A stretch of DNA of 64,000 bases from Candidatus Uhrbacteria bacterium RIFCSPLOWO2_01_FULL_47_17 (GCA_001791305.1 MGEI01000003.1:112872-176871), one strand, 5' to 3'. Positions 1,105 through 54,735 are shown, numbered from the stretch's first letter. Notes: a model not told the origin generated them from the letters alone. Made by a program: numbers and translations.

Positions 1105-1132
1105 GGGAACCAAGGCTAAAGCCTCAGGTTAC
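1105..1132 (+). repeat. Conserved intergenic hairpin motif, copy 1 (GGGAACCAAGGCTAAAGCCTCAGGTTAC)
   Basis: The 28 nt motif sits 8 nt after the dnaB stop (other strand), between dnaB and ybaB. A GGGGTC-ccca-GACCCC hairpin lies adjacent at about 1076-1091. Confidence 0.8.
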
Positions 1133-1139
1133 GGGAATT

Positions 1140-2660
1140 CTACCGCGCTCCTGGATTTGCATCAATTGGTGGGGGAGCCATTACGGCTGTTCCGCCGCCA
1201 GGTTGTCCGAGTGGGGCGTGAGCGGGTTTGTTTTGTGCGGTTGCGTACGGAGCGAATCCGTTGTTGTTTGAAGAGCCTGATCCGCCTCCGCCTGTATAGC
1301 TTCCTGCATGTCCATCTAAATTGCGAAAAGACGCGCGCTCTTTTTCGAAGAACAATCGAATCATGCCTGTTGGGCCATTACGATGTTTTGCAATGTGGAT
1401 TTCTGCGATGTTTTTGTCTTCCGGCGCCAAGTCTTCTTCGCGGAAGTTTTTATCCGCGGCTTTTCGGTAAATAAACAAAACGACGTCGGCGTCCTGCTCG
1501 ATAGAACCTGAATCACGAAGGTGAGATAGTTTTGGAATCGCAGGCTTCGTCAACTCGACAGCACGCGACAACTGAGCGAGGGCAAGAACAGGAACATCCA
1601 ACTCTTTGGCGATCTGTTTTAAACCGCGAGAAATTTCCGCAACTTCTTGTACGCGGTTTTCTTGGGATTTTTTTGATCTTCCTTCCATGAGCTGTAAGTA
1701 GTCGACAACAATCATGCCAAGGCCATGTTCTGTTTTAAGTCGACGTGCTTTTGTACGAAGCTGCATGATGTTCAGGTTTGCGCTGTCGTCAATGAAGATT
1801 GGTGCTTCTGAGAGTTTACCAAGCGCGTCTGCGATTTTTGGAAAATCGTCGGCTTTGTCCGAGAGTCGTCCGGTTCGAAGTTTCCACAAATCAACATTCG
1901 CCTGCGCACAAATCATACGGTCAACGAGTTGCTCTTTACTCATTTCGAGGGAAAAGAATGCGGTCGGTACTTTCATGTTCACGCCAATGTGACGCGCCAT
2001 GTCGAGTGCAAGCGCGGTTTTTCCGCACGATGGACGTGCAGCAAGAATGATGAGATCGGACTTTTGAAATCCGGCAAGGATTTGATCGAGCGCTGTATAT
2101 CCGGTTGCAACGCCGCGTAACTTGCCGCGATCGCGATGCAATTCATCGATACGCTCAAAGGCACCGTCGAGAACGCTGCGAATAGAGACGAATGTATTTT
2201 TGTTATATTTTTCCGAAACGTGAAAAAGTGCGCGTTCTGCTTCGTCTAATGTCGAATCAATTTCTTCTTCCTCTTCAAATCCCATTTGTGAAATGTTTGT
2301 GGCGGCCGTAATCAGTCGTCGAAGCGTTGCTTTTTTTTGCACAATCTCCGCGTAGTGCGTGACGTTTGCGGCGGTCGGAACCATGTTTGAGAGTTCGACG
2401 AGGTAGGCGCGTCCGCCCACTTGTGTGAGCTGACCTTTTTCTTCGAGGCGGTTTCCAAGCGAAAGAATATCGATCGGATCGTGTCTCTCGAATAGGTCCG
2501 TAATGGTTTCATACACCCATTGGTGTGCGGGACGATAAAAGTCATCGCCTTGCAAACGATCTGCAACTTTGACAATTGCATCTTTGTCAATCAAAAGAGA
2601 CCCGAGCAAGGATTGCTCTGCCTCCAGGTTTTGTGGGGGAATGCGCTCATGGGTTGCCAT
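1140..2660 (-). CDS. dnaB: Replicative DNA helicase DnaB, with a Gly/Pro-rich C-terminal extension of about 50 aa
   Basis: 506 aa. DnaB N-terminal domain (IPPQNLEAEQSLLGSLL), Walker A (GARPSCGKTALAL), Walker B (IVVDYLQLM) and RecA-like C-terminus, followed by a ...GGGGSGSSNNNGF... tail. Confidence 0.9.
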   Translation of the reverse strand: MATHERIPPQNLEAEQSLLGSLLIDKDAIVKVADRLQGDDFYRPAHQWVYETITDLFERHDPIDILSLGNRLEEKGQLTQVGGRAYLVELSNMVPTAANVTHYAEIVQKKATLRRLITAATNISQMGFEEEEEIDSTLDEAERALFHVSEKYNKNTFVSIRSVLDGAFERIDELHRDRGKLRGVATGYTALDQILAGFQKSDLIILAARPSCGKTALALDMARHIGVNMKVPTAFFSLEMSKEQLVDRMICAQANVDLWKLRTGRLSDKADDFPKIADALGKLSEAPIFIDDSANLNIMQLRTKARRLKTEHGLGMIVVDYLQLMEGRSKKSQENRVQEVAEISRGLKQIAKELDVPVLALAQLSRAVELTKPAIPKLSHLRDSGSIEQDADVVLFIYRKAADKNFREEDLAPEDKNIAEIHIAKHRNGPTGMIRLFFEKERASFRNLDGHAGSYTGGGGSGSSNNNGFAPYATAQNKPAHAPLGQPGGGTAVMAPPPIDANPGAR

Positions 2661-2737
2661 AGATTTGGGTATCTTAGCACGCTTCTCATACGAGACAAGA
2701 GGACAACCTGTGTTATAATTGTGGAGAAAAATACTCT

Positions 2738-3886
2738 ATGATTCACCCAGATTTTAAATTTTTGCGTGCTGTTTTCATGATGGTTGGCGGAATTGTTGGA
2801 GTTGGTGTGTTTGGGCTTCCATTTGCCTTTGCACAAAGCGGTTTTGTGATTGGACTTGTCGAATTATTGGTGATCGGACTTATTCTGCTCATGGTGCAAT
2901 TCATGTATGCTGAGCTCGCGCTTCAAACGGAAGGCTCACACCGACTTGTTGGATATGTTGAAATTTATCTTGGAAAAAAATGGTCTTGGCTCTGTATGGC
3001 TGCTCTGTCTGCAAGTATTTGGGGAGCCATGCTTGCCTACATGATTATTGGAGGAAAGTTTTTGTTTCTCATTTTGTCGCCTGTTTTTGGGGGGACAACA
3101 ACGGGGTATGCATATGTTGTTGGTCTCATTGCCGCCTGTTTGATTTATCGTGGATTGCAGTTTGCCTCTAAACTCGAGGTGTTTGTGATGCTTGCACTCC
3201 TCTTTTTGTTTATTTTCATCATTGCTCTATCCATTCCATACATTCAACCAAGCAACCTCACCGCTTTTGATTCGACAAAGTGGTTTTTACCCTACGGTAT
3301 TATTCTCTTTGCTCTCTCATCCACAGGAATCGTTCCCGAAATGCGGGATGTTCTTGGTTTGCGCGCAAAGAAACAACTAGGCAAAGCCGTTCTTCTTGGA
3401 ATGACCACCGTTATCTTGCTGTACTCACTCTTTGCTTTTGCGATTGTGGGTGTGACAGGAACCGCAACAACCGGCGCAGCGTTTGATGGTCTTGTCCCAA
3501 TTTTTGGGTCATCCTTTCGAGTGATTGCATCTCTGCTTGGTCTCACAACGATCCTGTCCATCTTCATGCTTCTTGGCATTGTGCTTCAAAATACCTTGAA
3601 GTTTGATTTGCGCTTAGCTCGCCCTGTCGCGTTTTTGCTTACGGTCACGGTGCCGTTTCTCTTTTTTGCGATCGGTGTCCGTGAGTTCGTGGAGCTTATT
3701 GGATTTATTGGATCTGTGTTCGGAGGCATGCTAGGGATTTTTATTGTGCTTTGTTATCTCAAACTGAAACGTGAACCTTTGTGCAAGGAGCATCATTGTC
3801 TCAATCTGCCCGATCTTTTTTCTTGGCTCGCCGTCCTCTTTTTTCTGGGTGGATTGATTTTCACTTTGTATCAATTTTTGGTATAA
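2738..3886 (+). CDS. Amino acid permease, HAAAP/aromatic amino acid transporter-like polytopic membrane protein
   Basis: 382 aa and highly hydrophobic with about 11 predicted TM segments. N-terminal VGGIVGVGVFGLPFAFAQSGF is typical of Mtr/TyrP/SdaC-type permeases. SD-like GGAGAAA lies upstream. Confidence 0.55.
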   Translation: MIHPDFKFLRAVFMMVGGIVGVGVFGLPFAFAQSGFVIGLVELLVIGLILLMVQFMYAELALQTEGSHRLVGYVEIYLGKKWSWLCMAALSASIWGAMLAYMIIGGKFLFLILSPVFGGTTTGYAYVVGLIAACLIYRGLQFASKLEVFVMLALLFLFIFIIALSIPYIQPSNLTAFDSTKWFLPYGIILFALSSTGIVPEMRDVLGLRAKKQLGKAVLLGMTTVILLYSLFAFAIVGVTGTATTGAAFDGLVPIFGSSFRVIASLLGLTTILSIFMLLGIVLQNTLKFDLRLARPVAFLLTVTVPFLFFAIGVREFVELIGFIGSVFGGMLGIFIVLCYLKLKREPLCKEHHCLNLPDLFSWLAVLFFLGGLIFTLYQFLV

Positions 3887-3895
3887 TCTTTTTAT

Positions 3896-4300
3896 ATGGA
3901 TTTATTGAAACGTTATTTTACAAAAAGATACTTTCTGTTTTTTCTTTTGTTATTTCTTGTTTGGTATCCTGGCTCGTTTCTTTTCTATGTTGCATACGGA
4001 GTCACTCAAAGTGGAGTTCTCTATGTTGCCTTAAACGCCTATTTTCCTCTCCTCATTTTTTTGTGCTCCTTTTTGTATTTCCGCAAAAGCATCAACGACT
4101 GGAATGATCGATTTGCCGTTGCGTTCGGTTGGATTATTCTCACATTTCTCATCTCGGCTTTGCTTGTAAAACCCATGTACGGATTTGATTGGACATCCAT
4201 CATCAACATCTCGCAAATTCAAGCGAACTGGAGTCCGTTTCTGGCAGTGCTTCTTTCGGGAATGTTGGTAAGTGCTTTGAATGCACGAAGAAAAAAATAG
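3896..4300 (+). CDS. Hypothetical small integral membrane protein
   Basis: 134 aa with about 4 hydrophobic helices and no recognisable family. Confidence 0.4.
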   Translation: MDLLKRYFTKRYFLFFLLLFLVWYPGSFLFYVAYGVTQSGVLYVALNAYFPLLIFLCSFLYFRKSINDWNDRFAVAFGWIILTFLISALLVKPMYGFDWTSIINISQIQANWSPFLAVLLSGMLVSALNARRKK

Positions 4301-4304
4301 ATTT

Positions 4305-4334
4305 AAAAAAGAACTCCTCAAGGAGTTCTTTTTT
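4305..4334. terminator. Bidirectional rho-independent terminator (A6-GAACTC-loop-GAGTTC-T6) shared by the small membrane gene (+) and folD (-)
   Basis: Perfect stem flanked by A and T runs. Overlaps the folD stop codon. Confidence 0.7.
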
Positions 4335-5196
4335 GTTTTCCGTATGCGTTTAGGACATTCAGGAGGAGCACAGCAACCGTCATCGGGCCAACACCACCAG
4401 GAACAGGGGAGAGGGCGCCCGCGAGATCCTCGACAGACGCGCGATTAATATCCCCAACGAGTTTACCGTCAACTTTGGTTGTGCCGACATCAATGAGGAT
4501 CGCGCCCGGCTTGATCATGGAGCCTTCGATCAGGTTTGGTTTTCCGAGTGCCACAATCAGAATATCCGCCTCAGATATTTTTTCTTTGAACGAAGCATCA
4601 TAAGGACGAACAACCTCTGACGAAATTTGTTGTTCATGCAAAAGAATCGTGAGTGGATCGGCGAAGAAGTTGCTTGCAACGATCACCGCACGCAATCCCC
4701 CCTCCTTTTTGAAGGAGGGTATTAGGGGGTGGTCGTTTCGATCGAGGGCTTTATTGATAAGCTTCAGAATTCCGAGTGCAACGGCAGGCGCAAGTGCTGG
4801 TTTGCCTTTGCGAAGCGCTTCGAGGCTTTTTGGGTGAAACCCATCAACGTCTTTGATTGGATCAATGGCTGCGATTACGCGATCTGCATCTTGATTCGGG
4901 AGTGGAATCTGAACAAGGATGCCATTGATGTCATCTCGTTGGTTGAGCTCTTCGATCTTCGAGATGAGTTCGCTCTCCGAAACATCATTTGAATACAAAA
5001 ATTTTTCAAAGTAAATTCCAACTTCTTCACACGCTTTTTGTTTCAGGTTCACGTAAATGTGTGATGCGGGATCTTCCCCAACTAAAAGAATCGCGAGACC
5101 AGGTTTGTTCTCGAGAGCACTTACACGATTTTTGATTTTGGTTCGAATGGCTGCAGCGTATGCTTTGCCGTCAAGGATCATTGCCATAATGCGCAT
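4318..5196 (-). CDS. folD: Bifunctional methylenetetrahydrofolate dehydrogenase/cyclohydrolase FolD
   Basis: Start set at the in-frame ATG (MRIMAMILDGK), giving 293 aa. Conserved FolD motifs (LVGEDPASHIYVNLK, QIPLP, GALSPVPGGVGPMTVAVLLLN). The longer ORF-track extension has no homology. Confidence 0.85.
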   Translation of the reverse strand: MRIMAMILDGKAYAAAIRTKIKNRVSALENKPGLAILLVGEDPASHIYVNLKQKACEEVGIYFEKFLYSNDVSESELISKIEELNQRDDINGILVQIPLPNQDADRVIAAIDPIKDVDGFHPKSLEALRKGKPALAPAVALGILKLINKALDRNDHPLIPSFKKEGGLRAVIVASNFFADPLTILLHEQQISSEVVRPYDASFKEKISEADILIVALGKPNLIEGSMIKPGAILIDVGTTKVDGKLVGDINRASVEDLAGALSPVPGGVGPMTVAVLLLNVLNAYGKQKRTP

Positions 5197-5211
5197 AGGA
5201 TAGCGGAAAAG

Positions 5212-5236
5212 AAAAAAACCGTCGAGATGACGGTTT
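5212..5236 (-). terminator. Terminator for the IMPase gene (AAACCGTC-gagat-GACGGTTT plus T-run on the minus strand)
   Basis: 8 bp stem followed by a U-run in the minus-strand transcript. Overlaps the stop codon. Confidence 0.65.
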
Positions 5237-6161
5237 AGGATTCGATGCGGAGGCCCTCGCTTGCACACCAGGCGGCGAGTTCGGGAAGGTGGTTCTCGTG
5301 AATGACGAGCATGTCCGTACCAGTGCGATACGTGTGTTGCACCGTCTTCATGGTTTGAAAAATGAGCGCGGGAGTCGAGTCCGACAGAGAAACGGGGGTA
5401 ATCGCGAGGAAGCGAAAGCCCAAACGGTTTGCGAGCCCAATCACAGGGCAAGTGTCCCACGGCGTCTGTTTGCCCGGGCGAAGAATCGCCGCACCAACTT
5501 CTCCCTTCCAGAGGCGCGCCATTGAAAGACCAATCGATCCTTCCGCGGTGTGGTGCTTCTTGAAAAGGGGGTGTGGCCTGAGCTGAAGCAATCGTCTCGT
5601 CACCTCATCGTGTTCCTCGACCGGATCTCGAATCAGCACGTACTGATCGATCAGTGGCAGATTCCGGGGAATCTTGTTCAACAAGCGAGGCTTGTTGTTC
5701 GGCGACAGATGATGCGTTTTCTTCGACCCAGGACGGAAGTAATACACTTCCTTCGTCATGACGTCTTCAATGCACACGGCAATCACATGGTCACCGTCCA
5801 TGAGGGCAAGCATCACGCTGATGCCGCCTGAATGGTAGTGAACAAATGCGCGCGTTCCATCGATCGGATCACCTGTAAAGCGGAGTGTCTCCGTCGGCTT
5901 CTTTGCCGGAATGGACAATCCTCCTTCTTCGGCGATGATGCCGAAAGTGGGGAAGCGTTCGAGCAGGAGACGTTTCATTACGCCTTGAACTTGGACATCG
6001 ATGTCCGTCACCCAATCAATTTTGCCATCATCCTTGATGCCTTTGTGCTTGGCTTTGAACGAGAATCGTTTGCGCTGCACATGGTCAGCAAGGCGTGATA
6101 CAACATCACGCATGAGGACACCGATCGCTGCTTCTGTTAGGCTGCCATAGGTTCTTTGCAT
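5235..6161 (-). CDS. Inositol monophosphatase family protein (SuhB/CysQ-like)
   Basis: Start at MQRTYGS, giving 309 aa. IMPase signature motifs WVTDIDVQ and FTGDPIDGTRAF...HYH. Confidence 0.75.
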   Translation of the reverse strand: MQRTYGSLTEAAIGVLMRDVVSRLADHVQRKRFSFKAKHKGIKDDGKIDWVTDIDVQVQGVMKRLLLERFPTFGIIAEEGGLSIPAKKPTETLRFTGDPIDGTRAFVHYHSGGISVMLALMDGDHVIAVCIEDVMTKEVYYFRPGSKKTHHLSPNNKPRLLNKIPRNLPLIDQYVLIRDPVEEHDEVTRRLLQLRPHPLFKKHHTAEGSIGLSMARLWKGEVGAAILRPGKQTPWDTCPVIGLANRLGFRFLAITPVSLSDSTPALIFQTMKTVQHTYRTGTDMLVIHENHLPELAAWCASEGLRIES

Positions 6162-6257
6162 GGAGAGAACTCCTTGTCGCGGTTTGATATGCGACACAGA
6201 AGAATACTCTCTATAACCAAAATTGTCAATAAAAAACCACATGAGTCGTTCATGTGG

Positions 6258-6878
6258 CTAGGGTCGTTTCGTGGGGCGCAATCGGTAGCGCTCCGTTCCG
6301 CTTGTCATCTTTGCGTTCACAACAAGCATCACGGTCGGTTCGGTTGGTTTCTCATCAAACACGATGGCACCACCTGTACAGAGGCGAACAATGTGTTCGA
6401 GGGCGTGTGCCTCTTTTTTGAATTCCTTCCCGCCAATTTCGCAAAGAAGCCAAAAACGAATGCTCTCCCAAAGCTGATTCCACAAGTTGATGGGAAGATC
6501 ATTGCGAAAACGGTTTCCAAAACTGAGCCGAAGATCAAACGTGAGGTTGATGTTTTTCATCGGGTCTACAGAGTTTCGCAATCTCTGGTAGAGTCGCACG
6601 CGTGTTCGCGAAATGAAATTGGAATTGTGTTGGGATGTCACAAGATGTTTTGGAATGCCTGATTCGGCAACACCCTCAACACCAACACACGGACGATTTG
6701 TCAGAAATGCAATATGGGTCTGAATTCCTTGCGGAAGTTCTGGATTGAACCCGTACAAAAATTGATCTCGCTCACACATGCAAAACAACGGCTCGAGAAT
6801 TTTCATGATTTCTTGCGTGCGCTGTTCGGTTGTGTAGCGGCTCATCGCCTCGCGCAGCGTTGATCTCCGTACTTCCAT
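6258..6878 (-). CDS. Hypothetical protein
   Basis: 207 aa starting at MEVRRS, which has a perfect SD (AGGAGG) 7 nt upstream. Putative sigma70-like promoter (TTGACA-17-TACAAC) upstream. No family recognised. Confidence 0.45.
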   Translation of the reverse strand: MEVRRSTLREAMSRYTTEQRTQEIMKILEPLFCMCERDQFLYGFNPELPQGIQTHIAFLTNRPCVGVEGVAESGIPKHLVTSQHNSNFISRTRVRLYQRLRNSVDPMKNINLTFDLRLSFGNRFRNDLPINLWNQLWESIRFWLLCEIGGKEFKKEAHALEHIVRLCTGGAIVFDEKPTEPTVMLVVNAKMTSGTERYRLRPTKRP

Positions 6879-9589: not shown

Positions 9590-9594
9590 CCTCT

Positions 9595-16374: not shown

Positions 16375-16719
16375 ATGACCATCTCCTCAATTCTTGGAAC
16401 GAACATGGAACTTACGGATGCCATCAAGCGTTATGTTGAAGAGCGTGCAGAAGTGCTTGAGAAATTGACATCCGGTTTTGAATCCACAGCAGAGTTGCGC
16501 GTAGAGCTCGGAAAGACCTCGCAACATCACACAAGCGGCCCATTCTTTTTTGCCGAGTTTCACATGGATGTTCCCGGAACCATTCTGACCGCAAAAGCAG
16601 AGGGCGCAGATTTATATGCCGCCATAGATGAAGTTCGTGATGATTTAAAGCGTCAGCTTGTAGATCGAAAAGAAAAAGTTGTCGATCAAAATAGACACCC
16701 AAGACCGGGAAAGGAATAA
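16375..16719 (+). CDS. hpf: Ribosome hibernation promoting factor / RaiA family protein
   Basis: Start at MTISSILGTNMELTDAIKRYVEE, giving 114 aa (the alternative ATG at 16363 adds 4 aa). Typical HPF beta-alpha-beta-beta-beta-alpha core. Confidence 0.75.
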   Translation: MTISSILGTNMELTDAIKRYVEERAEVLEKLTSGFESTAELRVELGKTSQHHTSGPFFFAEFHMDVPGTILTAKAEGADLYAAIDEVRDDLKRQLVDRKEKVVDQNRHPRPGKE

Positions 16720-23934: not shown

Positions 23935-25566
23935 ATGTTACCCTTGCTTGCGATTCAGATCATCCAAGAATCCGCGCAATCATCTGCTTCGTTGATTCCA
24001 CTCGATTTCTTCAATCAACCGATTGATGTGATTTTTTTTAATCTGTTGTTGTGGTTTGGATGGATCCCTGTTCTCACAACACTTTTGTGGGGATTTTCAG
24101 AGCTGTGGCTCATGGAACGTCAAGCAGAGTTTGCCGCAAAGCAAAAATATATTTGTCTTGCGGTGGATGTTCCGTCCATGACAGAACAAACACCAAAGGC
24201 GCTCGAAAACTTATTTTCCGTTTTATACGCGGCAAAATCAACCCCAACGTTTAAAGAAAAGTGGTTCGATGGCAAATTCATGCCAACGTTTTCTTTTGAG
24301 ATTGTTTCAGAAGAAGGCTACATGCAATTTATTATCCGCACACAGGCAAAGTTTCGAGATGTGATTGAAGCTGGAATTTACGCGCAGTATCCAGATGCAG
24401 AGTTGAATGAGGTTGATGACTATGTCACAAAAATCCCAAAAATCTTTCCTGATGAGAAATATGACATGTGGGGCGCAGAGTTCACGCTCGACAAGCCCTC
24501 GCATTTTCCCATTCGTACTTACGTTGACTTTGAAGACCAAATGACGGGAGAAATTAAAGATCCGCTCGGTTACACCTTGGAACAGATGTCCAAAATGAAA
24601 CCCGGTGAGCATTTTTGGTTTCAACTTGTCATTCAGCCTACGGGAAATGAGTGGAAAAAAGCAGGAATTACACACGTGAACAAAACATTCGGTGTGGAAG
24701 AAAAAGCGGCAGCGAAAAGCGATATTGCGGCGGCAGCAGGAACCATGTTTAAACTTCCGTTTGAATTGATTGAACACGCAACTGCTGTAGATCTTGCGCC
24801 TATTTTTGGCATGGCCTCTGCAGAAAAAAAAGTAGAAGATCCATGGAAAGCCTTCAAGCTTGGCCCTGCTCAGCAAGATGAAGCAAAAGCGATCATGCGA
24901 AAAACCATTAAGGTTGGACATGCGGTAAAAATTCGTATTGTGTATTGTGCACAGAAACCTGTGTACAAGAAAGGGGATCGCGTGACCATGATTAAAGGTA
25001 TTTTGAATCAGTACTCTCATTTGAATTTGAATTCGTTCAAGATGCATGCCGCATCTGTTCCAAAAGACGATTATTTTTGGCAGAAATGGGATTATGAGAA
25101 AAAACAAGGCACTCTCATGAAGGCGTATCAAGGGCGTAGCTGGGGAATCGGGGCGAACCCCGTTTACTTGAACGCAGAAGAACTTGCAACGCTTTGGCAC
25201 TTTCCAACCATTAGCATTAAAGCGCCGCTCATCAAAAAAGCAGAAGCTCGTCGCGCAGAACCTCCTGTTGGACTTCCTATTACATTTCTCGAAAACACAT
25301 TGCCTGGTGTTGGCGATAATGAATTTCCGCTTCCGGGTGGAATGCCCATGGAACATCATGAGTCCGCGGAGTCGCGTGAGGCAGGAACGTTTGCAAACGT
25401 GAAAGAACCACTCCCAGAAACATTGCCACACCTGAAAGCACCAACAGACCAAGAGCATGAAGATACAGGTGAGGCACTCCTTCCAAAGAGTCGATTTATG
25501 AATGACACATCTCCCGCAGATGCGTCCGACGAAGATTTATTTACTCCACCCGATTTGCCAGTTTGA
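23935..25566 (+). CDS. Hypothetical membrane-anchored protein (two N-terminal TM helices plus a large soluble domain), paired with the downstream coupling-protein-like ATPase
   Basis: 543 aa. TM segments near residues 30-60. No recognisable catalytic motif. Acidic C-terminal tail. Putative promoter and short leader upstream. Confidence 0.5.
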   Translation: MLPLLAIQIIQESAQSSASLIPLDFFNQPIDVIFFNLLLWFGWIPVLTTLLWGFSELWLMERQAEFAAKQKYICLAVDVPSMTEQTPKALENLFSVLYAAKSTPTFKEKWFDGKFMPTFSFEIVSEEGYMQFIIRTQAKFRDVIEAGIYAQYPDAELNEVDDYVTKIPKIFPDEKYDMWGAEFTLDKPSHFPIRTYVDFEDQMTGEIKDPLGYTLEQMSKMKPGEHFWFQLVIQPTGNEWKKAGITHVNKTFGVEEKAAAKSDIAAAAGTMFKLPFELIEHATAVDLAPIFGMASAEKKVEDPWKAFKLGPAQQDEAKAIMRKTIKVGHAVKIRIVYCAQKPVYKKGDRVTMIKGILNQYSHLNLNSFKMHAASVPKDDYFWQKWDYEKKQGTLMKAYQGRSWGIGANPVYLNAEELATLWHFPTISIKAPLIKKAEARRAEPPVGLPITFLENTLPGVGDNEFPLPGGMPMEHHESAESREAGTFANVKEPLPETLPHLKAPTDQEHEDTGEALLPKSRFMNDTSPADASDEDLFTPPDLPV

Positions 25567-25581
25567 TCCTTACTTTCCGCT

Positions 25582-27990
25582 ATGGGCTATAATCACGATC
25601 ATGAAAATGAGGTCAACTATTTTGCGAAAACCAACTTTCGCAATCAGATGACAAAATTTGGTATCAAAACCGACGATCGCCGTCGACATGTGTATGTGAT
25701 TGGAAAAACAGGTATGGGAAAGACGGTTCTTCTTGAGAATCTCACGCTTTCCGATATTTACGCAGGACATGGGTGCTGTTATGTAGATCCACACGGAGAT
25801 ACAGCGGAGAAGTTGATTAACTATATTCCAAGCTGGCGTATTAATGATGTTGTGTATTTTAATCCGGCAGATGCAGAATATCCGGTTGGATTTAATATTC
25901 TTGAAGCCGTTTCCGAGAGACATAAGCACTTGGTGGCAAGTGGAATGATGGGAGTTTTTAAAAAGATTTGGGAAGACCAATGGTCGTCCCGCATGGAATA
26001 CATTTTGAACAACACAATCCTCGCGCTGCTCGACAATCAAGGATCAACATTGCTTGGAATCAACCGCATGTTGTCTGATGCAGAGTATCGTAAGCGCATT
26101 GTTGGAAATGTGACGGATCCGGTTGTGAAAACGTTTTGGTTGAAAGAGTTTGCCTCCTATAATGAAAAATACGCACAAGAAGCCGTGGCTCCGATTCAAA
26201 ACAAAATCGGACAGTTTTTGTCTGCATCCGTGATTCGTAACATTGTTGCGCAGGTAAAATCAAGTATCAACATTCGTGAAATCATGGACTCGGGAAAGAT
26301 TTTTATTGTGAACTTGTCAAAAGGACGTATCGGAGAAGACAGCTCACGTCTGCTTGGTGGACTTCTCATCACGAAATTGCAACTGTCCGCCATGGAACGT
26401 GTGGATCAGGATGAAAAGGAACGTTTGGATTTTTATTTGTATGTGGATGAGTTTCAAAACTTTGCGGTGGATTCGTTTGCGGGCATTTTGTCTGAGGCGC
26501 GTAAATACCGGTTGTGTTTAACCATCGCTCACCAGTATATCGCTCAGTTGACGGACGAGGTTCGCGAAGCGGTGTTTGGAAACGTTGGAACGATTATTTC
26601 GTTCCGTGTTGGTTCTCCGGACGCAAAATACATGGAAACAGAATTTGCTCCCCGTTTTTTGCCGGAGGATATTATTAATCTTCCGAAGTATAACGTGTAT
26701 CTCAAGTTATTGATTAACGGAGTGACAAGTCAACCGTTTTCCGCCATTACCCTTGCGCCTATTTCTCAAAAAACAGATTCGGAAGATCGTATCATTAAAG
26801 TTTCGCGTGAACGTTACGCAAAGGAACGCCACACGATCGAGGAACAGATTATGACCTGGAGCGGCATGGGGAATATGGACGTTGATACGCTTCTTGCAGA
26901 GGCGGAAGAAAAAAAGAAGTCCGATAAAGTTGCGGCAAAGGACGCAAAGAAACCAAAGTTTGAATACAATTGTTCGAGGTGCAACAAAGACATGGTGCTC
27001 CCTGTCGAGCTTGATCGATCACGTCCAATCTATTGTGAGGATTGTATTGAGATTGTGCGTGAGGAGAAAGCGAATAAAGGAGGAAAGGGCGGAAGCAAGC
27101 CAGCAGATACGCGTAATCTTCCGCCAAAGGTTCAACCAAAAGAAGCGCCACCTCGCACAACGAGCATGTCTGTAGGGGTGCCCCTCGTGGGTACTCATGC
27201 AGTTGATGATCACAAGTTACCCGACGAGCCAACCATTTCGCTTTCAACGTTGATGCCGAAGACGGATGTGGTTGTAGGGGTGCCCCTTGTGGGTACCCAT
27301 GCATCGGTTTCAGAAACGGAAAAACCAAAGCCAGTCGCACCTGCGCCTGTTGTTTCAAAACCGCAACCCGTTGTTGCACCCATTCCGCCTGCGCCTCGAC
27401 CGACACCACAAGTGCCGGTTCCCGTTCAGGTTGAGTCAAAACCTATTGTTGTACAAACACCTGTTGCGAACGTTTCGGAATCTCGCATCTCATTTGATGA
27501 ACCCGTACGCGCAGACTCGAATATCAGCCAGTCGAGGCCAGCGCCTGCCGTTCAAACATCGTCGGAACCAAAGCCCCAACCACCAGTTGTCACTCCTCGA
27601 CCATCAACACCACAACCTCCGCGACCGATGGGGAATTTGTCGCGTACTCCTTCGCAGTCATCAAATGAGGGACAGGGCGGAGAAGGCGGAAATGGCGGAG
27701 AGGGGGAGAAGCGTAAACGTAAACGTAAGCGCAAAAAATCCGGTGGGGCTGGATCTGTTACTGTTGAAAATACAGGAAATGTAAATCGAGAACGTGTTGT
27801 CTCACAACTCTCCCAACCTGGACAAACAATCACATTGAAATCATTACAAGAACAAAAACGTCCAGAGTCAAAACCTGTTGTGCCTCAAGCGCGTCCGATC
27901 GAGAATCCTGTCGAAAAGCCGGCAGAGAAACCGGTTTTGAAACCCGTCGCCGGAAAACTACACATTGGCCAAAGCATCAAATTCGAATAA
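25582..27990 (+). CDS. TraD/TraG/VirD4-like coupling-protein-family P-loop ATPase (HerA-FtsK superfamily, cytoplasmic), with a C-terminal zinc ribbon and a Pro/Lys-rich disordered tail
   Basis: 802 aa. Walker A VIGKTGMGKT, Walker B FYLYVDEFQNF, a region resembling the T4CP arginine finger (RKYRLCLTIAHQYIAQL) and a TraG-D_C-like segment (AVFGNVGTIISFRVGS). Then a CxxC...CxxC ribbon (YNCSRCNK...YCEDC), an internal 10-aa duplication (VGVPLVGTHA x2) and a PKP/KRKRKRK low-complexity tail. Confidence 0.65.
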   Translation: MGYNHDHENEVNYFAKTNFRNQMTKFGIKTDDRRRHVYVIGKTGMGKTVLLENLTLSDIYAGHGCCYVDPHGDTAEKLINYIPSWRINDVVYFNPADAEYPVGFNILEAVSERHKHLVASGMMGVFKKIWEDQWSSRMEYILNNTILALLDNQGSTLLGINRMLSDAEYRKRIVGNVTDPVVKTFWLKEFASYNEKYAQEAVAPIQNKIGQFLSASVIRNIVAQVKSSINIREIMDSGKIFIVNLSKGRIGEDSSRLLGGLLITKLQLSAMERVDQDEKERLDFYLYVDEFQNFAVDSFAGILSEARKYRLCLTIAHQYIAQLTDEVREAVFGNVGTIISFRVGSPDAKYMETEFAPRFLPEDIINLPKYNVYLKLLINGVTSQPFSAITLAPISQKTDSEDRIIKVSRERYAKERHTIEEQIMTWSGMGNMDVDTLLAEAEEKKKSDKVAAKDAKKPKFEYNCSRCNKDMVLPVELDRSRPIYCEDCIEIVREEKANKGGKGGSKPADTRNLPPKVQPKEAPPRTTSMSVGVPLVGTHAVDDHKLPDEPTISLSTLMPKTDVVVGVPLVGTHASVSETEKPKPVAPAPVVSKPQPVVAPIPPAPRPTPQVPVPVQVESKPIVVQTPVANVSESRISFDEPVRADSNISQSRPAPAVQTSSEPKPQPPVVTPRPSTPQPPRPMGNLSRTPSQSSNEGQGGEGGNGGEGEKRKRKRKRKKSGGAGSVTVENTGNVNRERVVSQLSQPGQTITLKSLQEQKRPESKPVVPQARPIENPVEKPAEKPVLKPVAGKLHIGQSIKFE

Positions 27991-30323: not shown

Positions 30324-30354
30324 AAACCATCAACGTTGCGTTGATGGTTTTTTA
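30323..30354. terminator. Bidirectional terminator (AAAACCATCAACG-ttgc-GTTGATGGTTTT) between mnmA (+) and the convergent secreted-protein gene (-)
   Basis: Perfect 13 bp stem flanked by A and T runs. Overlaps both stop codons. Confidence 0.75.
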
Positions 30355-30954
30355 TTTTCCCTCCGCCCACAAGTAAAACTCTTTTCGCGGATCTGTTTTT
30401 TCGTTGAACTTTGTTTCTACTACAACGGGAGGGTTTACATCTGTAATTGTGATTGGGCCTGTCACTTCGAATGTTTGGTTGAGAAGGGGAATGGTTGTTT
30501 GGATGCTACCTGTGCTTTCGAGAAATAAGGGAATAACACTCGTTTGATGTTTGAAGTCGTAGCCGATGAATGACGCACGTCCGGTAACGCGATGCTCTGC
30601 TGTTGGTGTGTCGACTTCGAGGTTTCCTCCGTTGTTCACGTTGACGAGAATACGTCCGTGTCCAAATCCGATGCGGACGTTTTGTTTTGAAAGTGACTCG
30701 AGTTTGAGGTTTGTGAGTTCGTCAAGATTCACTCGCACAGATTCACCAATGAGCAGCTCAACAAATTCCCCTTTGCCTGTCCGAACCGTTTCCCCACGGC
30801 GGAAAACATGGTTTTCCGCATACGTCTTATAGGTCAAATAGGTCCTACTTCGAGAAACCCGCGCTTCAACTTGCGGCCCAACATCAACTCGGTTCATGAC
30901 AAGAAGTCCGAACACACAGAGGATAAACGCGATTGCGAGGATGTTTTTGCGCAT
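30352..30954 (-). CDS. Hypothetical secreted or membrane-anchored protein
   Basis: 200 aa with an N-terminal signal/anchor (ILAIAFILCVFGLLV) and no family recognised. Confidence 0.4.
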   Translation of the reverse strand: MRKNILAIAFILCVFGLLVMNRVDVGPQVEARVSRSRTYLTYKTYAENHVFRRGETVRTGKGEFVELLIGESVRVNLDELTNLKLESLSKQNVRIGFGHGRILVNVNNGGNLEVDTPTAEHRVTGRASFIGYDFKHQTSVIPLFLESTGSIQTTIPLLNQTFEVTGPITITDVNPPVVVETKFNEKTDPRKEFYLWAEGK

Positions 30955-33313: not shown

Positions 33314-33341
33314 GGGAACCAAGGCTTAAGCCTCGGATTAC
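33314..33341 (+). repeat. Conserved intergenic hairpin motif, copy 3 (GGGAACCAAGGCTTAAGCCTCGGATTAC)
   Basis: In the divergent region between the RlmD-like gene (-) and the SpoU methyltransferase (+), 7 nt upstream of the SpoU ATG. Confidence 0.8.
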
Positions 33342-43399: not shown

Positions 43400-43804
43400 A
43401 TGACAGAACAAGCAACAAAATTTATTGGAGCCGTTGGACGACGCAAATGCGCTGTTGCGCAAGTTCGCCTTCATCATGGTGGATCTGGAAAGATCACTAT
43501 TAATGATCGTGAGCTCGAAAAATACCTTCCAACAACCATCCAACATCAAACCGTGAAATCTCCTCTCGTTTTGACGGGAACAGAAAACATGTTTGATGTG
43601 CAGATCGTTGTGAAAGGTGGAGGACAAGCCGGCCAAGCGGACAGTATCCGACTTGGAATTGCGCGCGCCCTTGTTGACTTCAACCCAGAATACAAAACCG
43701 TTTTGAAAAAACAAGGTATGATGACACGTGATGCTCGCATCCGTGAACGTAAAAAATTCGGAAAAAAGTCCGCGCGTCGATCCCCACAATGGTCAAAGCG
43801 TTAG
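43400..43804 (+). CDS. rpsI: 30S ribosomal protein S9
   Basis: 134 aa, canonical S9 ending ...RRSPQWSKR. Confidence 0.9.
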   Translation: MTEQATKFIGAVGRRKCAVAQVRLHHGGSGKITINDRELEKYLPTTIQHQTVKSPLVLTGTENMFDVQIVVKGGGQAGQADSIRLGIARALVDFNPEYKTVLKKQGMMTRDARIRERKKFGKKSARRSPQWSKR

Positions 43805-49519: not shown

Positions 49520-49532
49520 AGGAAGAAAAAAA

Positions 49533-50492
49533 TTATTCATTTCGTAAAAAATTTGTTTCCAGGAAAGTTTTATGTCCTCGCACATATTCGTTCGGGGACA
49601 TTTTTTGTTTACCTTCAGGTTGAATGGTTATGAGTTCAAGAAGGGAATGATCAACGCAGACAACGGAGATGTGTCCGTTTTCCTCGAGAACACTACCGGG
49701 TGCACGATCGGACATTCCGTCGAGATGCTGTACTTCGTGCACAACGATGCGAACATTGTTTCCATCCTCGCCCCAAACAAAATACGTTCCGGGCCAAGGC
49801 TTCATGGCGCGCACGTGTCTGTCAATTTCGACAGCAGACTTCGACCAGTCGATCTTGCCATCTTCTTTTGCGAGCATCTTCGAATAGGTTGCGAGCGCGT
49901 TATCTTGCGGAATAGCGACGCGTTCTTCGGTTGTCCACTTACGCAGTGCCTCGAGAAACAGAGGAACGCCGATGGCAATGATTTTCGGCTGAATCGTTTC
50001 GCCGGTCTCTCGTTCATCGATCGGAAACTCTCGCACTGCAAGAACGGGGCCCGTGTCCATTCCTTCGTCGAGAAGCATAATTGAGACGCCCGTTACTTTT
50101 TCGCCCATACGAATCGCTTCTTGAAATGGCGATGGTCCGCGGTACTTTGGCAATAACGATGGATGAACATTGATACAGCCAAACTTTGGAAGATCAAGAA
50201 CGGCTTTCGGAATAATTTTTCCGTATACGACAACAACGAATACATCCGCGTTCAGTTTTGAGAGTTCTGCCGCAACTTCCTCGGTCCGTAATGATTTGTA
50301 TGTGAGTGCGGGGATATTGTGTTTAAGAGCGAACTCGTGCACAGCCGACTTTGTCATGATTGCTTTTCGACCTACAGGTTTTTCGGGTTGTGTGACAACC
50401 GCCACAACATCAAAATCCGTGCTCTGTACGAGCGCGGATAAAAAGGGAACGGAGAGTTCCGGGCTGCCAAAATAGACAACGCGAGTCTTCAT
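49533..50492 (-). CDS. fmt: Methionyl-tRNA formyltransferase
   Basis: 319 aa. Formyl-transferase N-terminal domain (INVHPSLLPKYRGPSP) and C-terminal domain. def-fmt arrangement. Confidence 0.9.
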   Translation of the reverse strand: MKTRVVYFGSPELSVPFLSALVQSTDFDVVAVVTQPEKPVGRKAIMTKSAVHEFALKHNIPALTYKSLRTEEVAAELSKLNADVFVVVVYGKIIPKAVLDLPKFGCINVHPSLLPKYRGPSPFQEAIRMGEKVTGVSIMLLDEGMDTGPVLAVREFPIDERETGETIQPKIIAIGVPLFLEALRKWTTEERVAIPQDNALATYSKMLAKEDGKIDWSKSAVEIDRHVRAMKPWPGTYFVWGEDGNNVRIVVHEVQHLDGMSDRAPGSVLEENGHISVVCVDHSLLELITIQPEGKQKMSPNEYVRGHKTFLETNFLRNE

Positions 50493-50965
50493 AGCTTTGG
50501 ATGCGTGGTGTATCGAAGCACCTTATCGATAAACAAAATACCGTCCAAGTGATCAATTTCATGTTGAAAGACAATCGCCATCAGACCTTCTGCGCGGAAT
50601 GTTTCGTTCAAACCTTTTATGTTTTGTGCTGTAACGGTTACGGATCGGTGGCGCTTTACGATCCCGAAGACACCAGGAACGGAAAGGCATCCTTCTTCGC
50701 TTTCGATTTTTGTAAAAGATTTGGATGTAATTTTTGGATTGAAAAAGGCTTGCGGTTTGTTATTTCCCACATCCACAATGATCATGCGTTTGTGTACACC
50801 AATTTGGGGCGCGGCAATGCCGATCCCGTTTTCCACGCGCATGGTTTCAATAAGGTCGCGTGTGAGAGCTGCTGTTTCTTTCGTTCCGAACTCTTCTTTT
50901 GGAAAATCAGAAGAGATCACACGAAGATCAGCGTTTGGAGAAGTAAGAACCGTTTTAGATGTCAT
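50489..50965 (-). CDS. def: Peptide deformylase
   Basis: 158 aa. Motifs GIGIAAPQIG, EGCLS, HEIDHLDG. Confidence 0.9.
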   Translation of the reverse strand: MTSKTVLTSPNADLRVISSDFPKEEFGTKETAALTRDLIETMRVENGIGIAAPQIGVHKRMIIVDVGNNKPQAFFNPKITSKSFTKIESEEGCLSVPGVFGIVKRHRSVTVTAQNIKGLNETFRAEGLMAIVFQHEIDHLDGILFIDKVLRYTTHPKL

Positions 50966-50977
50966 AGGAAAAGAATT

Positions 50978-52822
50978 TTAGCCCGTATTTGCTTGCGTGT
51001 CAATGATAACACGATCCGGAATGGTTCGGAATAATGCGAGGAGTTTTGGGCGATCTTCTGGCGGATAACGGAGTTCGAGTGTGTATTCTGAGTCAGCGGA
51101 CGACCTGCCTTTTTTGATACGTACTATGCTCGACACAGCACGAATTTGTTGAACAAGTTGGTTCTGCAGGATGTCTGCCTTGCGTGGTTCTGTCTCTTCG
51201 AACGTGAGTGTTGAGATTTCACAGAATGGTGGCTGAATGTACGACCGGCGTGCCTCGCGTTCCATGGCGAGGGATGCAATTGGATTTTCGAAGTACTCGG
51301 CGAAGAATGGAACGGAGCGAGTTTGTAAGAAGAATTGCGCGCGATTTGCAAATGCAAGCGCACGCCAGCCTTCGCATTCGTACAGTGCCGCCTCGCTTGC
51401 GCGGTATGTTGGGCGAAAGAGCGGCGCGTCTGCGTCGAGAAGAACAACAAGGGCGAATCGATCCGGAGTGAATGCGTTTGCCATTTGTTCAAGGTAGTAG
51501 GACGTGGCGATCACGAGCGATGCGTTCCGGTTCATGATCGGATGTTCTTTGTCAATGAGGCATGTCGAGACGGTCGGAAATTCTTTCTGGAGCAGAGCAT
51601 CAATCTTTTGATTACCGAATCCAGATTCTTTGAGTGTTGCTTCATGACACTTCGGACACGATCGAATAATCGGAATGGATGATTTGCATCGGACGCAACG
51701 CATCAACAGGTCATCAAGAATCATTCCGTTGCTACACGTTTCACAGACGACATCCGAAGCGCACGATGTGCAACTGAGTCGTCGAGCATGATGTTTTTTG
51801 TTGAGAACGACAAGAACACGCTCACCGCGTTCAAGACATTCCTGTGTTGCCTGATAGGTTTCATGCGAAATCCAATGCCCGATCGCGGATGCACGACTTT
51901 GGTGCTCCATATCGATGATGCACGGCTCGAGATTCGGCGGCGTGCCGATGATATTTGTCTTCGAGAATACAAGTGTGTCTTCGATGCGCGGCATGACATC
52001 GAGAAAGAACAGATTCGTGTGATGATGCTCGGCAAGCATGTGCGCAACTGTTCGTCCATCAAATCGAGGATTTTGTTCGTGATGTCCATGGTTCTCGTGA
52101 CTCGAACGCACCACAAAAATCGTTGTTGTCTTCGAGTCTGTTGCAAACAAAACATTTTTTGTGCCAATCATGACACATGCGTCTGCATTTCTATGCGCAT
52201 TCCAAACAGCAAACTGTGTTCCTGTGTTTTCTTCGCCCGTGAGAAGAAAGCGGGTCTCGAGCGGTAAGTGCGCGTAAAGTCTTTGTGCATCGAGGATCGT
52301 CGGGCAAAGCACAACGCACTTCTGTTCCGGTTTCAATCGGAGATATCCTGCGATTACGCACGCCATGCGTCGAATGTCCGAAACATGCGCAAACGCACGA
52401 CTGCGTTCGGTTAATTGTTGCGCGGTCGATTGCAGGCCGTCGAGTTCTGACGGCGTGATCGTGAGGGGTTCGTTTGGTGCGATGGGTGCTGTTTTTGTTG
52501 CGATGCGTTTCGGAAATTCGGGTAAGCAACTATTCAAGATAGACGGAACAGATTGAGCGAGCTCACTCGCGAGATGCTCGAAGAACGATAGTTCCGTATC
52601 TGAAAACGTGATACGAGAATCAAGCTTCGTAATAGCTTTCAATCGGAACGCGCGATCTTGTACGTTCTTTATGCGCGAGATGACACCAAAAACGGATGTA
52701 GCGCGAAAGGGAATCACAACAACATCACCTCGCTTAAGGTGATGAAGTTCTTCGGGCACCGCATAGTCAAAGACGGTGACATGTCGAGGCATGCGCATGA
52801 TTGGATACACTTCCGCAATCAT
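50978..52822 (-). CDS. priA: Primosomal protein N' (PriA) homolog with apparently degenerate helicase Walker A and DExH motifs
   Basis: 614 aa. N-terminal 3'-DNA-binding/WH region and CxxC zinc-binding insert (CTSCASDVVCETC...CVRCKS...CPKCH) are conserved. Motif Ia-like VVLCPTILDAQ is present. The expected GxxGSGKT position reads VSDIRRMA and the expected DEEH position reads RSSHEN. Confidence 0.8.
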   Translation of the reverse strand: MIAEVYPIMRMPRHVTVFDYAVPEELHHLKRGDVVVIPFRATSVFGVISRIKNVQDRAFRLKAITKLDSRITFSDTELSFFEHLASELAQSVPSILNSCLPEFPKRIATKTAPIAPNEPLTITPSELDGLQSTAQQLTERSRAFAHVSDIRRMACVIAGYLRLKPEQKCVVLCPTILDAQRLYAHLPLETRFLLTGEENTGTQFAVWNAHRNADACVMIGTKNVLFATDSKTTTIFVVRSSHENHGHHEQNPRFDGRTVAHMLAEHHHTNLFFLDVMPRIEDTLVFSKTNIIGTPPNLEPCIIDMEHQSRASAIGHWISHETYQATQECLERGERVLVVLNKKHHARRLSCTSCASDVVCETCSNGMILDDLLMRCVRCKSSIPIIRSCPKCHEATLKESGFGNQKIDALLQKEFPTVSTCLIDKEHPIMNRNASLVIATSYYLEQMANAFTPDRFALVVLLDADAPLFRPTYRASEAALYECEGWRALAFANRAQFFLQTRSVPFFAEYFENPIASLAMEREARRSYIQPPFCEISTLTFEETEPRKADILQNQLVQQIRAVSSIVRIKKGRSSADSEYTLELRYPPEDRPKLLALFRTIPDRVIIDTQANTG

Positions 52823-52823
52823 A

Positions 52824-53618
52824 TTAATTCAAATGGAATTGTGCCACGAGTTGTCCGACGCCAAATGGGTGTTCATACGAGAGAATTTCAGGACGCACGG
52901 GCATTTTTTCAAGCATGCCAAACAGAATCAAGAGAGGTCGGTGTGCGCACTCTTGTGAATTCTCGAGCGCGTCATCGTCCATGGAAAGAAGTTGCGAGAG
53001 AGACATGTTCTCAATGGACTTCACCATCGCGATATCGACTTCCTCGCCAGATGGGTGAAAACCAGCGGGAGCATTTGAGGTGAGTGTGTGCGAGAGATCC
53101 CCAGAGGCGATGATAGCAATACGTTTTGAACTTTTCACACAAATATCTTTTAAGATCCGTCCAAACTCAACGTGGGCTTTTGAGGATAAAAAACTGTAGG
53201 CAATTGGAACAATCGTGTGTGTGATTGGTAACGCTTTTGTAAGTAACGTGAGTGGAATTCCAACACCGTAATCAAGGCTCGCGTCTGAGTCGAGGGTGAA
53301 TGGCAGCGTTTCAGAACGCATGCGTCGTTGAATGTTCGTCATGAGTTCAATGTCCGGAAGGAATTCATCATGCGTTCCGTGATCGCCGAATTCTGAAACA
53401 TCGATAAAGTACTCATCATGCATGTTGAGAGAAAAGGCATCCTTGTGCGCACCGCGATGTGTTGAGATCGTTAAAATAACATCAGGGCGTGATGCATAGA
53501 GTTCTTCTGAAAGTCTTTGCATCGCATCAAGTGTTGCTTGCAAGGCTTTCGTATTCTCTTTGCCGATGGATTCAAGCAACAAAGGAGAATGTGGAGTAAA
53601 CGCAGCGAAAGTGATCAT
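52824..53618 (-). CDS. Class III extradiol dioxygenase-like protein (LigB/MEMO1/AmmeMemoRadiSam-B family)
   Basis: 264 aa with metal-ligand His pattern (HSP, HRG, H...). The family call comes from overall motif arrangement only. Confidence 0.55.
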   Translation of the reverse strand: MITFAAFTPHSPLLLESIGKENTKALQATLDAMQRLSEELYASRPDVILTISTHRGAHKDAFSLNMHDEYFIDVSEFGDHGTHDEFLPDIELMTNIQRRMRSETLPFTLDSDASLDYGVGIPLTLLTKALPITHTIVPIAYSFLSSKAHVEFGRILKDICVKSSKRIAIIASGDLSHTLTSNAPAGFHPSGEEVDIAMVKSIENMSLSQLLSMDDDALENSQECAHRPLLILFGMLEKMPVRPEILSYEHPFGVGQLVAQFHLN

Positions 53619-54637
53619 AACGACGAATAGGTGGATGGAAAGATAAGTGGGCCTTCTGTGTAGCGAGTGAGATCTTTTTGTTTTACTTGAATGACATCAT
53701 GAATGCTGAAACCAGCATCACGGAGGGCGTTCATGGAAATGAATCCACGTCGAACGTTATCGACGATTAAATAAATGGATCCGGTCGGAGAACGGAGAAG
53801 GGAATAATTTGGAAAATCGATTGGTGCTCCGTCTGGATATTGTTCTATGATCGAAATACTCGTCGGAAGAATTGTGTTTGCATTGAATCGTGATTTCAGA
53901 ACAGCCTCCGAGATGATTGGCCGTTTTTTTCCACCCTGTACAAGCCAGACCCCACCAGTTTTTCGACTTTGAATAAGTGTTCCGTCCGGAAACATTTTTG
54001 TGAACCATCGATTCCAAATGTTCATGAAGTTCACATTTCCTTGTTTGTGCGGCGTGTACGTATAAAGCGCGGCGGTTGCGTTGTTTTGCGGGACAAGTGC
54101 GGCGCCATCGATCATGGATTCAATGCCGGGACCGTATCCGGATGAGGTCTTTCCCTGTATGAGCAGCTTTGACAAGTAGGCTTCACGAATGTGTTTTGTG
54201 GCAAAATAAATTTGTTTTCCAAATCCGCGATATTTTTGCAGTCGAGGATCAGACTTTGAACAGTCGTCACAAATCGCATACCCCATCGCCCAATCAAGTT
54301 GTTTTTGTGTTGCCTTTGGGCTTTCAACAAGACTTTGTTCTTTTTGAAGAATAACCAGGATGACCCGTGGGTTTAAGGTGAACTCTTTCGCTGCATTCGC
54401 GATAATATCTGCAGCGGAACGTGTCACCCCTTTTATGTCTTTCGTTTTATATTTTGCAAGCGATCCTTTTGATAAAAACATTTGGATTTCATTGCGCGAC
54501 ATGGCGTCAACATCTGTCATGTCCGCGTCTGACAACAGGTGCTCAGGGCTTGGAGCTTGTGGCGCAGCCAAAACAACCGTCGGGATCGACGTGGTCAAAA
54601 TAGCGATAAAAATAAGCAATCCCATTGCCTTGTTCAT
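53615..54637 (-). CDS. Hypothetical secreted protein
   Basis: Start at MNKAMGLLIFIAILT (signal peptide), giving 340 aa. The ORF-track start is an upstream TTG. No family recognised. Confidence 0.45.
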   Translation of the reverse strand: MNKAMGLLIFIAILTTSIPTVVLAAPQAPSPEHLLSDADMTDVDAMSRNEIQMFLSKGSLAKYKTKDIKGVTRSAADIIANAAKEFTLNPRVILVILQKEQSLVESPKATQKQLDWAMGYAICDDCSKSDPRLQKYRGFGKQIYFATKHIREAYLSKLLIQGKTSSGYGPGIESMIDGAALVPQNNATAALYTYTPHKQGNVNFMNIWNRWFTKMFPDGTLIQSRKTGGVWLVQGGKKRPIISEAVLKSRFNANTILPTSISIIEQYPDGAPIDFPNYSLLRSPTGSIYLIVDNVRRGFISMNALRDAGFSIHDVIQVKQKDLTRYTEGPLIFPSTYSSL

Positions 54638-54675
54638 GGAGAAAGTATATCGCAAAGAGAGTGATTCGACAAACG

Positions 54676-54702
54676 AAATACAAGCCTTTTTGGCTTGTAT
54701 TT
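54676..54702 (-). terminator. Terminator-like hairpin after clpB (AAATACAAGCC-ttttt-GGCTTGTATTT)
   Basis: Perfect 11 bp stem downstream (minus strand) of the clpB stop and of copy 4 of the conserved motif. Confidence 0.6.
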
Positions 54703-54707
54703 CGAAA

Positions 54708-54735
54708 GGGAACCAAGGCTAAAGCCTCAGATTAC
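54708..54735 (+). repeat. Conserved intergenic hairpin motif, copy 4 (GGGAACCAAGGCTAAAGCCTCAGATTAC)
   Basis: Overlaps the clpB stop codon (TAA lies within GATTAC on the other strand). Followed by a perfect AAATACAAGCC-ttttt-GGCTTGTATTT hairpin at about 54676-54702. Confidence 0.8.

Follow-up and report, generated by a model that had tools for sequence, protein, structure and literature searches.

Repetitive extragenic palindromes (REPs) are short DNA hairpins with a conserved head tetranucleotide that serve as the binding and cleavage substrate of REP-associated tyrosine transposases (RAYTs, also called TnpA-REP), which are HUH/Y1 enzymes related to the transposases of the IS200/IS605 family. 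We analyzed a 64,000-nucleotide (nt) stretch of DNA (here called the window) from Candidatus Uhrbacteria bacterium RIFCSPLOWO2_01_FULL_47_17 (MGEI01000003.1:112872-176871), a groundwater bacterium of the candidate phyla radiation (CPR) with a tiny genome. A first-pass annotation of this stretch had described four intergenic copies of a hairpin motif of roughly 28 nt, all in the same strand orientation, and had offered for it a choice of readings that ran from a small structured repeat ("REP-like") to an RNA-processing site. The four motifs are very probably REP copies, that is, an ordinary class of mobile palindromic repeat and not a new RNA, and it is the REP-like option that has held, with a cognate RAYT in the genome of a sister lineage, Uhrbacteria RIFOXYB2_FULL_45_11 (the sister genome).

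REPs have been defined as palindromes of 20 to 40 nt with a basal stem of 7 to 20 bp and a loop of 2 to 5 nt (PMC6006769). The RAYTs of group 3 go with short, perfect-stem REPs, such as those of Haemophilus influenzae, GTAGGGTGGGCTT(c/t)AGCCCACC, and Thioalkalivibrio, GTAGGTCGGCCTTCAGGCCGAC (PMC2817692), and REP-Mb of Marinomonas MWYL1, which has a TTTA loop whose first and last bases are essential (PMC8266576). In the classic REPtron, a RAYT gene lies between two inverted REPs whose GTAG heads point outward (PMC2817692, PMC6006769), and published RAYTs bind the GTAG-headed strand (PMC8266576). The related elements IS608 and IS200 use single-strand Y1 HUH chemistry at replication forks (PMC3333891, PMC3971601).

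The canonical unit of the window is read on the minus strand and consists of GTAA, one base (Y), a 7-bp stem, a TTNA loop, the return stem, and TTCCC. The first-pass annotation had read the motif on the plus strand, so that its reading direction is the reverse complement of the canonical form; its four copies are all present, with copy 2 extending from 16335 instead of 16340. Counted from the first letter of the window, they are as follows.

1105-1132, minus strand: REP copy 1, GTAAC-CTGAGGC-TTTA-GCCTTGG-TTCCC; covariance model score, 38.1 bits
16335-16362, minus strand: REP copy 2, GTAAC-CCAAGGC-TTTC-GCCTTGG-CTGTA; perfect 7-bp stem
33314-33341, minus strand: REP copy 3, GTAAT-CCGAGGC-TTAA-GCCTTGG-TTCCC
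54708-54735, minus strand: REP copy 4, GTAAT-CTGAGGC-TTTA-GCCTTGG-TTCCC; the GTAA head contains the clpB stop codon TAA (54732-54734)

A 23-nt consensus with up to three mismatches gave exactly four matches in the window and none in 100 dinucleotide-preserving shuffles, in agreement with the earlier statement that the repeat exceeds chance. The covariance model, run with filters off over both window strands, returned the same four copies and no fifth. The stem of 7 bp and the loop of 4 nt fall within the size range of REPs (with imperfect stems in copies 1 and 4), and copy 2 has the perfect stem and, on the plus strand, the GAAA loop ascribed to it. DNA folding energies of the four copies range from -2.4 to -8.7 kcal/mol. 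We could not name a better-folding strand, as DNA folding showed no clear difference between the two, and we dropped an asymmetry of wobble pairs between the strands, which was confounded by the manner in which the copies had been found. All four copies (four per 64 kb) are intergenic, with the overlap of copy 4 and a stop codon as the sole exception.

The units can be tied to an enzyme through a CPR metagenome contig (L124, also L149) that is identical to a contig of the sister genome and was reached by the same homology search that matched acidobacterial RAYTs. This contig carries an open reading frame (ORF) of 165 amino acids (aa) at 3047-3544 that scores 76.6 bits (E = 1.7e-21; model cut-off, 80 bits) on the NCBIfam model NF047646, "REP-associated tyrosine transposase," and matches Pfam Y1_Tnp. 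Its best solved relative is 4ER8, the TnpA-REP of Escherichia coli, with which the HUH motif (PDHVHIL) and the Y motif (DYILKNPVRAGLV) align. By its motifs and model fit, the protein is a predicted RAYT/TnpA-REP that would be expected to bind and cleave REPs. The gene is flanked by GTAGCCCGGGGCTTCAGCCCTGG on the left (3017-3039) and CCAAGGCTGAAGCCTTGGGTTAC on the right (3535-3557), which form an inverted pair, and because these are the same units as in the window, the motif as first reported is the complement of a REP. A GTAG head occurs in just one of the two units beside the gene, and most sister-genome copies have GTAA. On another contig of the sister genome (L131, 1444-1509), two units lie in inverted orientation with 20 nt between them, a doublet that resembles a REPIN or BIME. 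No synteny was found between the REP loci of the sister genome and the window.

The same data bear on the idea that the copies derive from an IS200/IS605 insertion sequence, as its decayed ends or as miniature versions of it, and do not belong to a REP/RAYT system. The enzyme superfamily and the logic of subterminal hairpins are shared, the units end at the 3′ side in TTAC, which we take to be the IS608 target tetranucleotide, and there is a weak match to the IS200 model. This match amounts to only 20.4 bits, however, against 76.6 bits on the RAYT model, and the closest solved relative is a TnpA-REP. An exact-sequence look-up of the protein matched only the sister genome and metagenome contigs, with the gene in one genomic context in every record recovered, and GTAG-headed hairpins in inverted orientation beside a gene constitute the layout of a REPtron. 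We therefore regard an IS200/IS605 derivation as very improbable.

Among described systems, the H. influenzae REP, GTAGGGTGGGCTTcAGCCCACC, has the same build (PMC2817692). Group 3 REPs as a whole share with the present units a length of 22 to 28 nt, a head tetranucleotide one base from a 7-bp stem, a 4-nt loop, TT(C/T)A, closed by G-C pairs, an extragenic and dispersed distribution, and a RAYT gene between an inverted pair, whereas the GTAA head of the window copies and most sister-genome copies, a conserved TTCCC tail, the CPR host, the low copy density, and the presence of singlets only in the window set the latter apart. The E. coli REP/BIME system with TnpA-REP (YafM; 4ER8; PMC3333891, PMC3479197) has in common with them the enzyme family, of which it is the best solved match, the hairpin with a 5′ tetranucleotide, the REPtron layout, and copies after stop codons and between genes, but its REPs are 29 to 37 nt long, require a stem mismatch bulge for activity, and occur mostly as BIME pairs in hundreds of copies. 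As in the REPINs of Pseudomonas fluorescens (PMC3116915), we see non-autonomous units tied to a single-copy RAYT, presence and absence varying by lineage, and an inverted doublet (in the sister genome); the window copies differ in being singlets, which REPIN theory counts as remnants. The subterminal hairpins of IS608 and ISDra2 (IS200/IS605) are likewise recognized on single strands by a Y1 HUH enzyme and show an orientation bias relative to replication (PMC3971601), but here there is no transposase inside the REP unit, recognition involves the head tetranucleotide, and the biased strand is not obviously that predicted by the IS608 model.

To describe the build of the family, we compared units beside further RAYT genes. 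Three homologues of the CPR RAYT (P0002-P0004; 40 to 52% identity) are flanked by units with the stems CGCACCC, CGCAGAC, CGCGACC, or CGCAGGC, which share a TNAA loop (plus-strand reading), a G[CT]TAC end, and a GTAG head. Across 20 units, five of the seven stem pairs have changed on both sides and 93.6% of cells are paired, a value reached in none of 500 shuffles and inflated by the use of a hairpin filter in picking some of the units; the position of units beside RAYT genes is independent of that filter. The compensatory changes that the first-pass annotation had asked for are thus seen. Fixed features of the units are the TT-N-A loop (canonical reading), the G-C pair that closes this loop, and the first three head bases, GTA, which are invariant in 19 of the 20.

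This pattern of change is hard to reconcile with two readings of the motif as a protein-binding site on duplex DNA. Seen as an operator for a dimeric DNA-binding or nucleoid-associated protein, with the palindrome CCAAGGC-N4-GCCTTGG, the perfect inverted repeat of copy 2 and the intergenic copies near promoters would be accounted for. The stem changes freely with compensation, however, while the asymmetric head and loop stay fixed, orthologous sites are devoid of the motif (see below), and the copies obey a strong single-strand orientation rule, so that we consider an operator extremely unlikely. The other reading is a plus-strand promoter of the extracytoplasmic function (ECF) sigma type (GGGAAC, 16 to 17 nt, GTTA) that would give leaderless or short-leader transcripts of hpf and the SpoU methylase. 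Copies 1, 3, and 4 read GGGAACC-N16-GTTAC or ATTAC, which we take to resemble the SigE/SigH-type consensus of actinobacteria, and two copies abut start codons. The window also encodes, at 30352-30954 on the minus strand, a 200-aa ORF with a FecR domain (anti-sigma-like), which was considered solely because of the superficial resemblance of the motif to an ECF promoter. We rejected the promoter, to which we give only the faintest probability, since copy 2 has no GGAAC (-35) box and conservation is highest in the supposed spacer, which covaries as a hairpin; moreover, copies 1 and 4 would yield only antisense dnaB and clpB transcripts, family members flanking RAYT genes lack GGAAC, and hpf of the sister genome has no such site upstream.

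We then considered whether the copies are conserved in place. The order dnaB-ybaB-recR is kept in relatives, with YbaB 74 to 91% identical, and no REP is found in their dnaB/ybaB spacers (27 to 117 nt). Similarly, the murB/hpf spacer of the RAYT-bearing sister genome measures 18 nt and has no REP, with the flanking codons clearly aligned. Run over 58 kb of DNA from related Uhrbacteria and a further 10 kb from the sister genome, the covariance model gave no matches. As the orthologous sites in relatives are empty, the copies at these two sites are insertions specific to the lineage of the window, which argues against a conserved regulatory RNA or operator. A target site could not be deduced from the empty murB/hpf site, where a preexisting TTAC is possible and the flank identity of 72% is too low for reliable alignment. 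In a related member of the Uhrbacteria (L146, 6134-6250; L147, 9884-10000), the dnaB/ybaB spacer contains a different long inverted repeat (GTGATGGAGTGATAAAGTGAAGGAG ... CTCCACCACTCCATAACTCC) and has been used by another small insertion.

A conserved cis-acting RNA transcribed with the flanking genes, whether a terminator, an attenuator, a processing site, or an element of an untranslated region, would agree with the hairpin form and with the location of two copies after stop codons and two before start codons, and a simple scan rates copy 4 as terminator-like on the minus strand. The motif is missing, however, from orthologous spacers whose flanking proteins are 74 to 91% identical, it is oriented against transcription at two of the four sites, and the same unit flanks a transposase gene. 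Rfam (4,227 models) has no match at the gathering threshold in the window, in line with the first-pass annotation, which had recognized no described RNA family in the motif; a reading as an undescribed RNA family, a riboswitch, or a processing site was not borne out, and we judge a cis-acting RNA to be highly unlikely. At ten related loci, Rfam gave nothing at the REP units, and its sole match at the gathering threshold was an L10 leader elsewhere in L002. A search with permissive thresholds of an 851-nt acidobacterial segment with two units gave chance-level matches only. The L10 leader (RF00557, 46.2 bits) belongs to a sister-genome locus (L002, 4485-4693; same as L125 and L129) in which a REP lies between an intrinsic-terminator-like hairpin and the leader; a link of the REP to rRNA or to this leader was set aside, and the arrangement was treated as a coincidence.

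The REP core is also found outside the Uhrbacteria. Scanning an 18-base core over one genome per species, we recovered, among the matches listed, more than 100 copies in Acidobacteriaceae and single copies in a second Uhrbacteria genome and a few Bacteroidota and Zixibacteria; a CPR-specific pattern gave nine stretches in metagenomes. At one acidobacterial locus, the ORF between two copies encodes a 150-aa Y1/HUH protein that scores 97.4 bits on NF047646 (cut-off, 80), and homologues of this RAYT adjoin the motif in seven loci. The RAYTs of Uhrbacteria and Acidobacteriaceae are only ∼25% identical, while the REP cores are near-identical, which is less surprising because the shared constraints leave about four free stem positions. 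The acidobacterial REP is part of a composite (L013, 240-320 and 790-870, and many other loci) in the order GGGGCTAAAGCCCC plus a T-run, ∼20 nt, and then GAGGC-CCAAGGCTRAAGCCTTGG-[GC]TTAC-CTAGAAGC, often trailed by simple repeats of the GCAAC/GGCAA type or by tandem units. Single 23-nt core matches occur in Hymenobacter, a Zixibacteria metagenome-assembled genome (MAG), a Bacteroidetes MAG, and Foetidibacter (L019, L104, L105, and L112), two of them (L105 and L112) with a GGCTAAAGC-type hairpin ∼25 nt upstream of the core, and no RAYT was found within these four 8-kb loci.

That all four window copies share one strand carries little weight on its own (P = 0.125). Of 114 acidobacterial copies, 107 have the hairpin-then-TTAC reading on the G-rich strand, and the same holds for all six Uhrbacteria singlets (the four window copies plus L123 and L125). 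The acidobacterial loci (L001-L117) have an extreme GC skew (median absolute value of 0.23 over 8 kb), and ∼64% of their coding bases, as called from third-position GC (GC3), are on the C-rich strand. ORFs show this skew whichever way they point, so it belongs to the strand itself rather than to transcription. The direction of the flanking genes gives a much weaker rule than the G-rich strand does, and the earlier proposal that the element is oriented relative to the chromosome and not to its neighbors is in line with these counts. A natural cause of such an orientation would be single-strand Y1 HUH chemistry at replication forks, as in IS608 and IS200.

Several observations weigh against reading the window copies as REPs. 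All four have the head GTAA, 1 nt from the hairpin foot, where the canonical head is GT[AG]G, located 0 to 2 nt 5′ of the foot, and a change of the fourth head base abolished cleavage in Stenotrophomonas maltophilia (PMC8266576). The stems of copies 1 and 4 are weaker and contain two A.C/C.A mismatches on the plus strand, and the inverted doublets (BIME/REPIN) that are common, though not obligatory, in REPs are absent from the window, where every copy is a singlet. The score of the CPR RAYT lies just under the NCBIfam cut-off. A tblastn search with RAYTs from Acidobacteriaceae and from the CPR detected none in the window or in the 19 kb of contig adjoining it (83 kb in all), which leaves the cognate enzyme of this genome hypothetical; the window copies could be relics. 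Finally, the GTAG-type strand is here the C-rich one and not the lagging-strand template, and because this is the strand that RAYTs bind, a simple IS608-style account of the bias needs some further assumption, such as a preferential loss of copies from the exposed strand, which would explain it. We hold it to be rather unlikely, if worth stating, that REP singlets of this family follow a near-absolute replication-strand rule in which the RAYT-bound strand is not exposed on the lagging-strand template.

The genes around the REP copies were assigned from an ORF listing and Pfam matches and, together with neighboring sites, are as follows.

REP copy 1: dnaB (minus), copy 1, ybaB (minus)-recR (minus)
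REP copy 2: murB (plus), copy 2, hpf (plus)-secA (plus)
REP copy 3: tRNA U5-methyltransferase-like gene (minus), copy 3, SpoU methylase gene (plus)
REP copy 4: clpB (minus), copy 4, unknown 346-aa ORF (minus)
1076-1091, strand not assigned: separate 6-bp hairpin beside copy 1, GGGGTC-CCCA-GACCCC; not in relatives without the REP
1137-1165, minus strand: promoter-like site TTGATG-17-TAGAAT in the 3′ end of dnaB; kept in all relatives as TTGAT[GC]-17-TA[GA]AAT
54674-54704, strand not assigned: separate 13-bp perfect hairpin beside copy 4; region at -17.1 kcal/mol, z score of -4.4

Copies 1 and 4 are indeed at stop codons, the former 7 nt past that of dnaB (1140-1142; the ybaB start is at 1060) and the latter overlapping that of clpB, and the additional hairpins beside them are real. 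The repeated layout of stop codon, motif, and hairpin that had been seen in these two sites is not a unit, as copy 1 sits just after the conserved promoter-like site for ybaB, starting 4 nt downstream of its -10 hexamer. With 4 nt between this putative promoter and the REP, the probable location of copy 1 is the ybaB-recR leader and not a dnaB terminator. The hairpin at 1076-1091 may have arrived in one insertion with copy 1 or may be what is left of a decayed partner, and that at 54674-54704, which is unrelated to the REP in sequence, is probably the clpB terminator. The placement of copies 2 and 3 immediately 5′ of start codons is correct for copy 3, which lies in a 75-nt divergent spacer and ends 6 nt ahead of the SpoU methylase ATG. 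Copy 2 occupies the entire 28-nt gap between the murB stop and the first in-frame hpf ATG (16363), but the true hpf start is probably the ATG at 16375, as hpf homologues have 114 aa.

Elsewhere in the window, a scan for tRNA and tmRNA found none. Adjoining plus-strand ORFs at 23935-27990 with DUF8128 and TrwB/type IV secretion system (T4SS) coupling-protein domains, as listed for the matching contig, may be what remains of a module for conjugation or DNA uptake. That contig, MGEQ01000002.1 (L119), belongs to assembly GCA_001791455.1, a groundwater CPR genome, and close homologues of the encoded proteins carry the name Candidatus Uhrbacteria. Compared with this contig, the window shows an indel of ∼30 nt at 43520-43523 and therefore comes from a slightly different record or strain.

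As REPs, the units would be bound by a RAYT as folded hairpins on single-stranded DNA, in a strand-specific manner, to judge from the RAYTs of E. coli, Stenotrophomonas, and Marinomonas and from IS608; by analogy with the same published systems, the enzyme would cut and rejoin the DNA near the hairpin so that the unit is copied or moved. Secondary effects on the neighboring genes are possible, including protection of mRNA 3′ ends, effects on translation near stop and start codons, and changes in leader structure. With this reading, a candidate "new RNA motif" is removed, and the appropriate label becomes a REP family with a GTAA head in Candidatus Uhrbacteria. CPR genomes are small and repeat-poor, and in the literature searched we found no paper linking REP/RAYT systems with these bacteria. 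REP units can break assemblies, mislead calls of start codons and terminators, and serve as strain markers. The strand rule seen in Acidobacteriaceae bears on the unsettled question of how RAYTs spread REPs. If real and general, such a rule would be a genomic readout of RAYT action in vivo, for example, of excision-driven loss from the exposed strand or of insertion via nascent DNA of the lagging strand. Another meaning could be that oriented REPs are retained in a streamlined CPR genome because they serve some function in the host.

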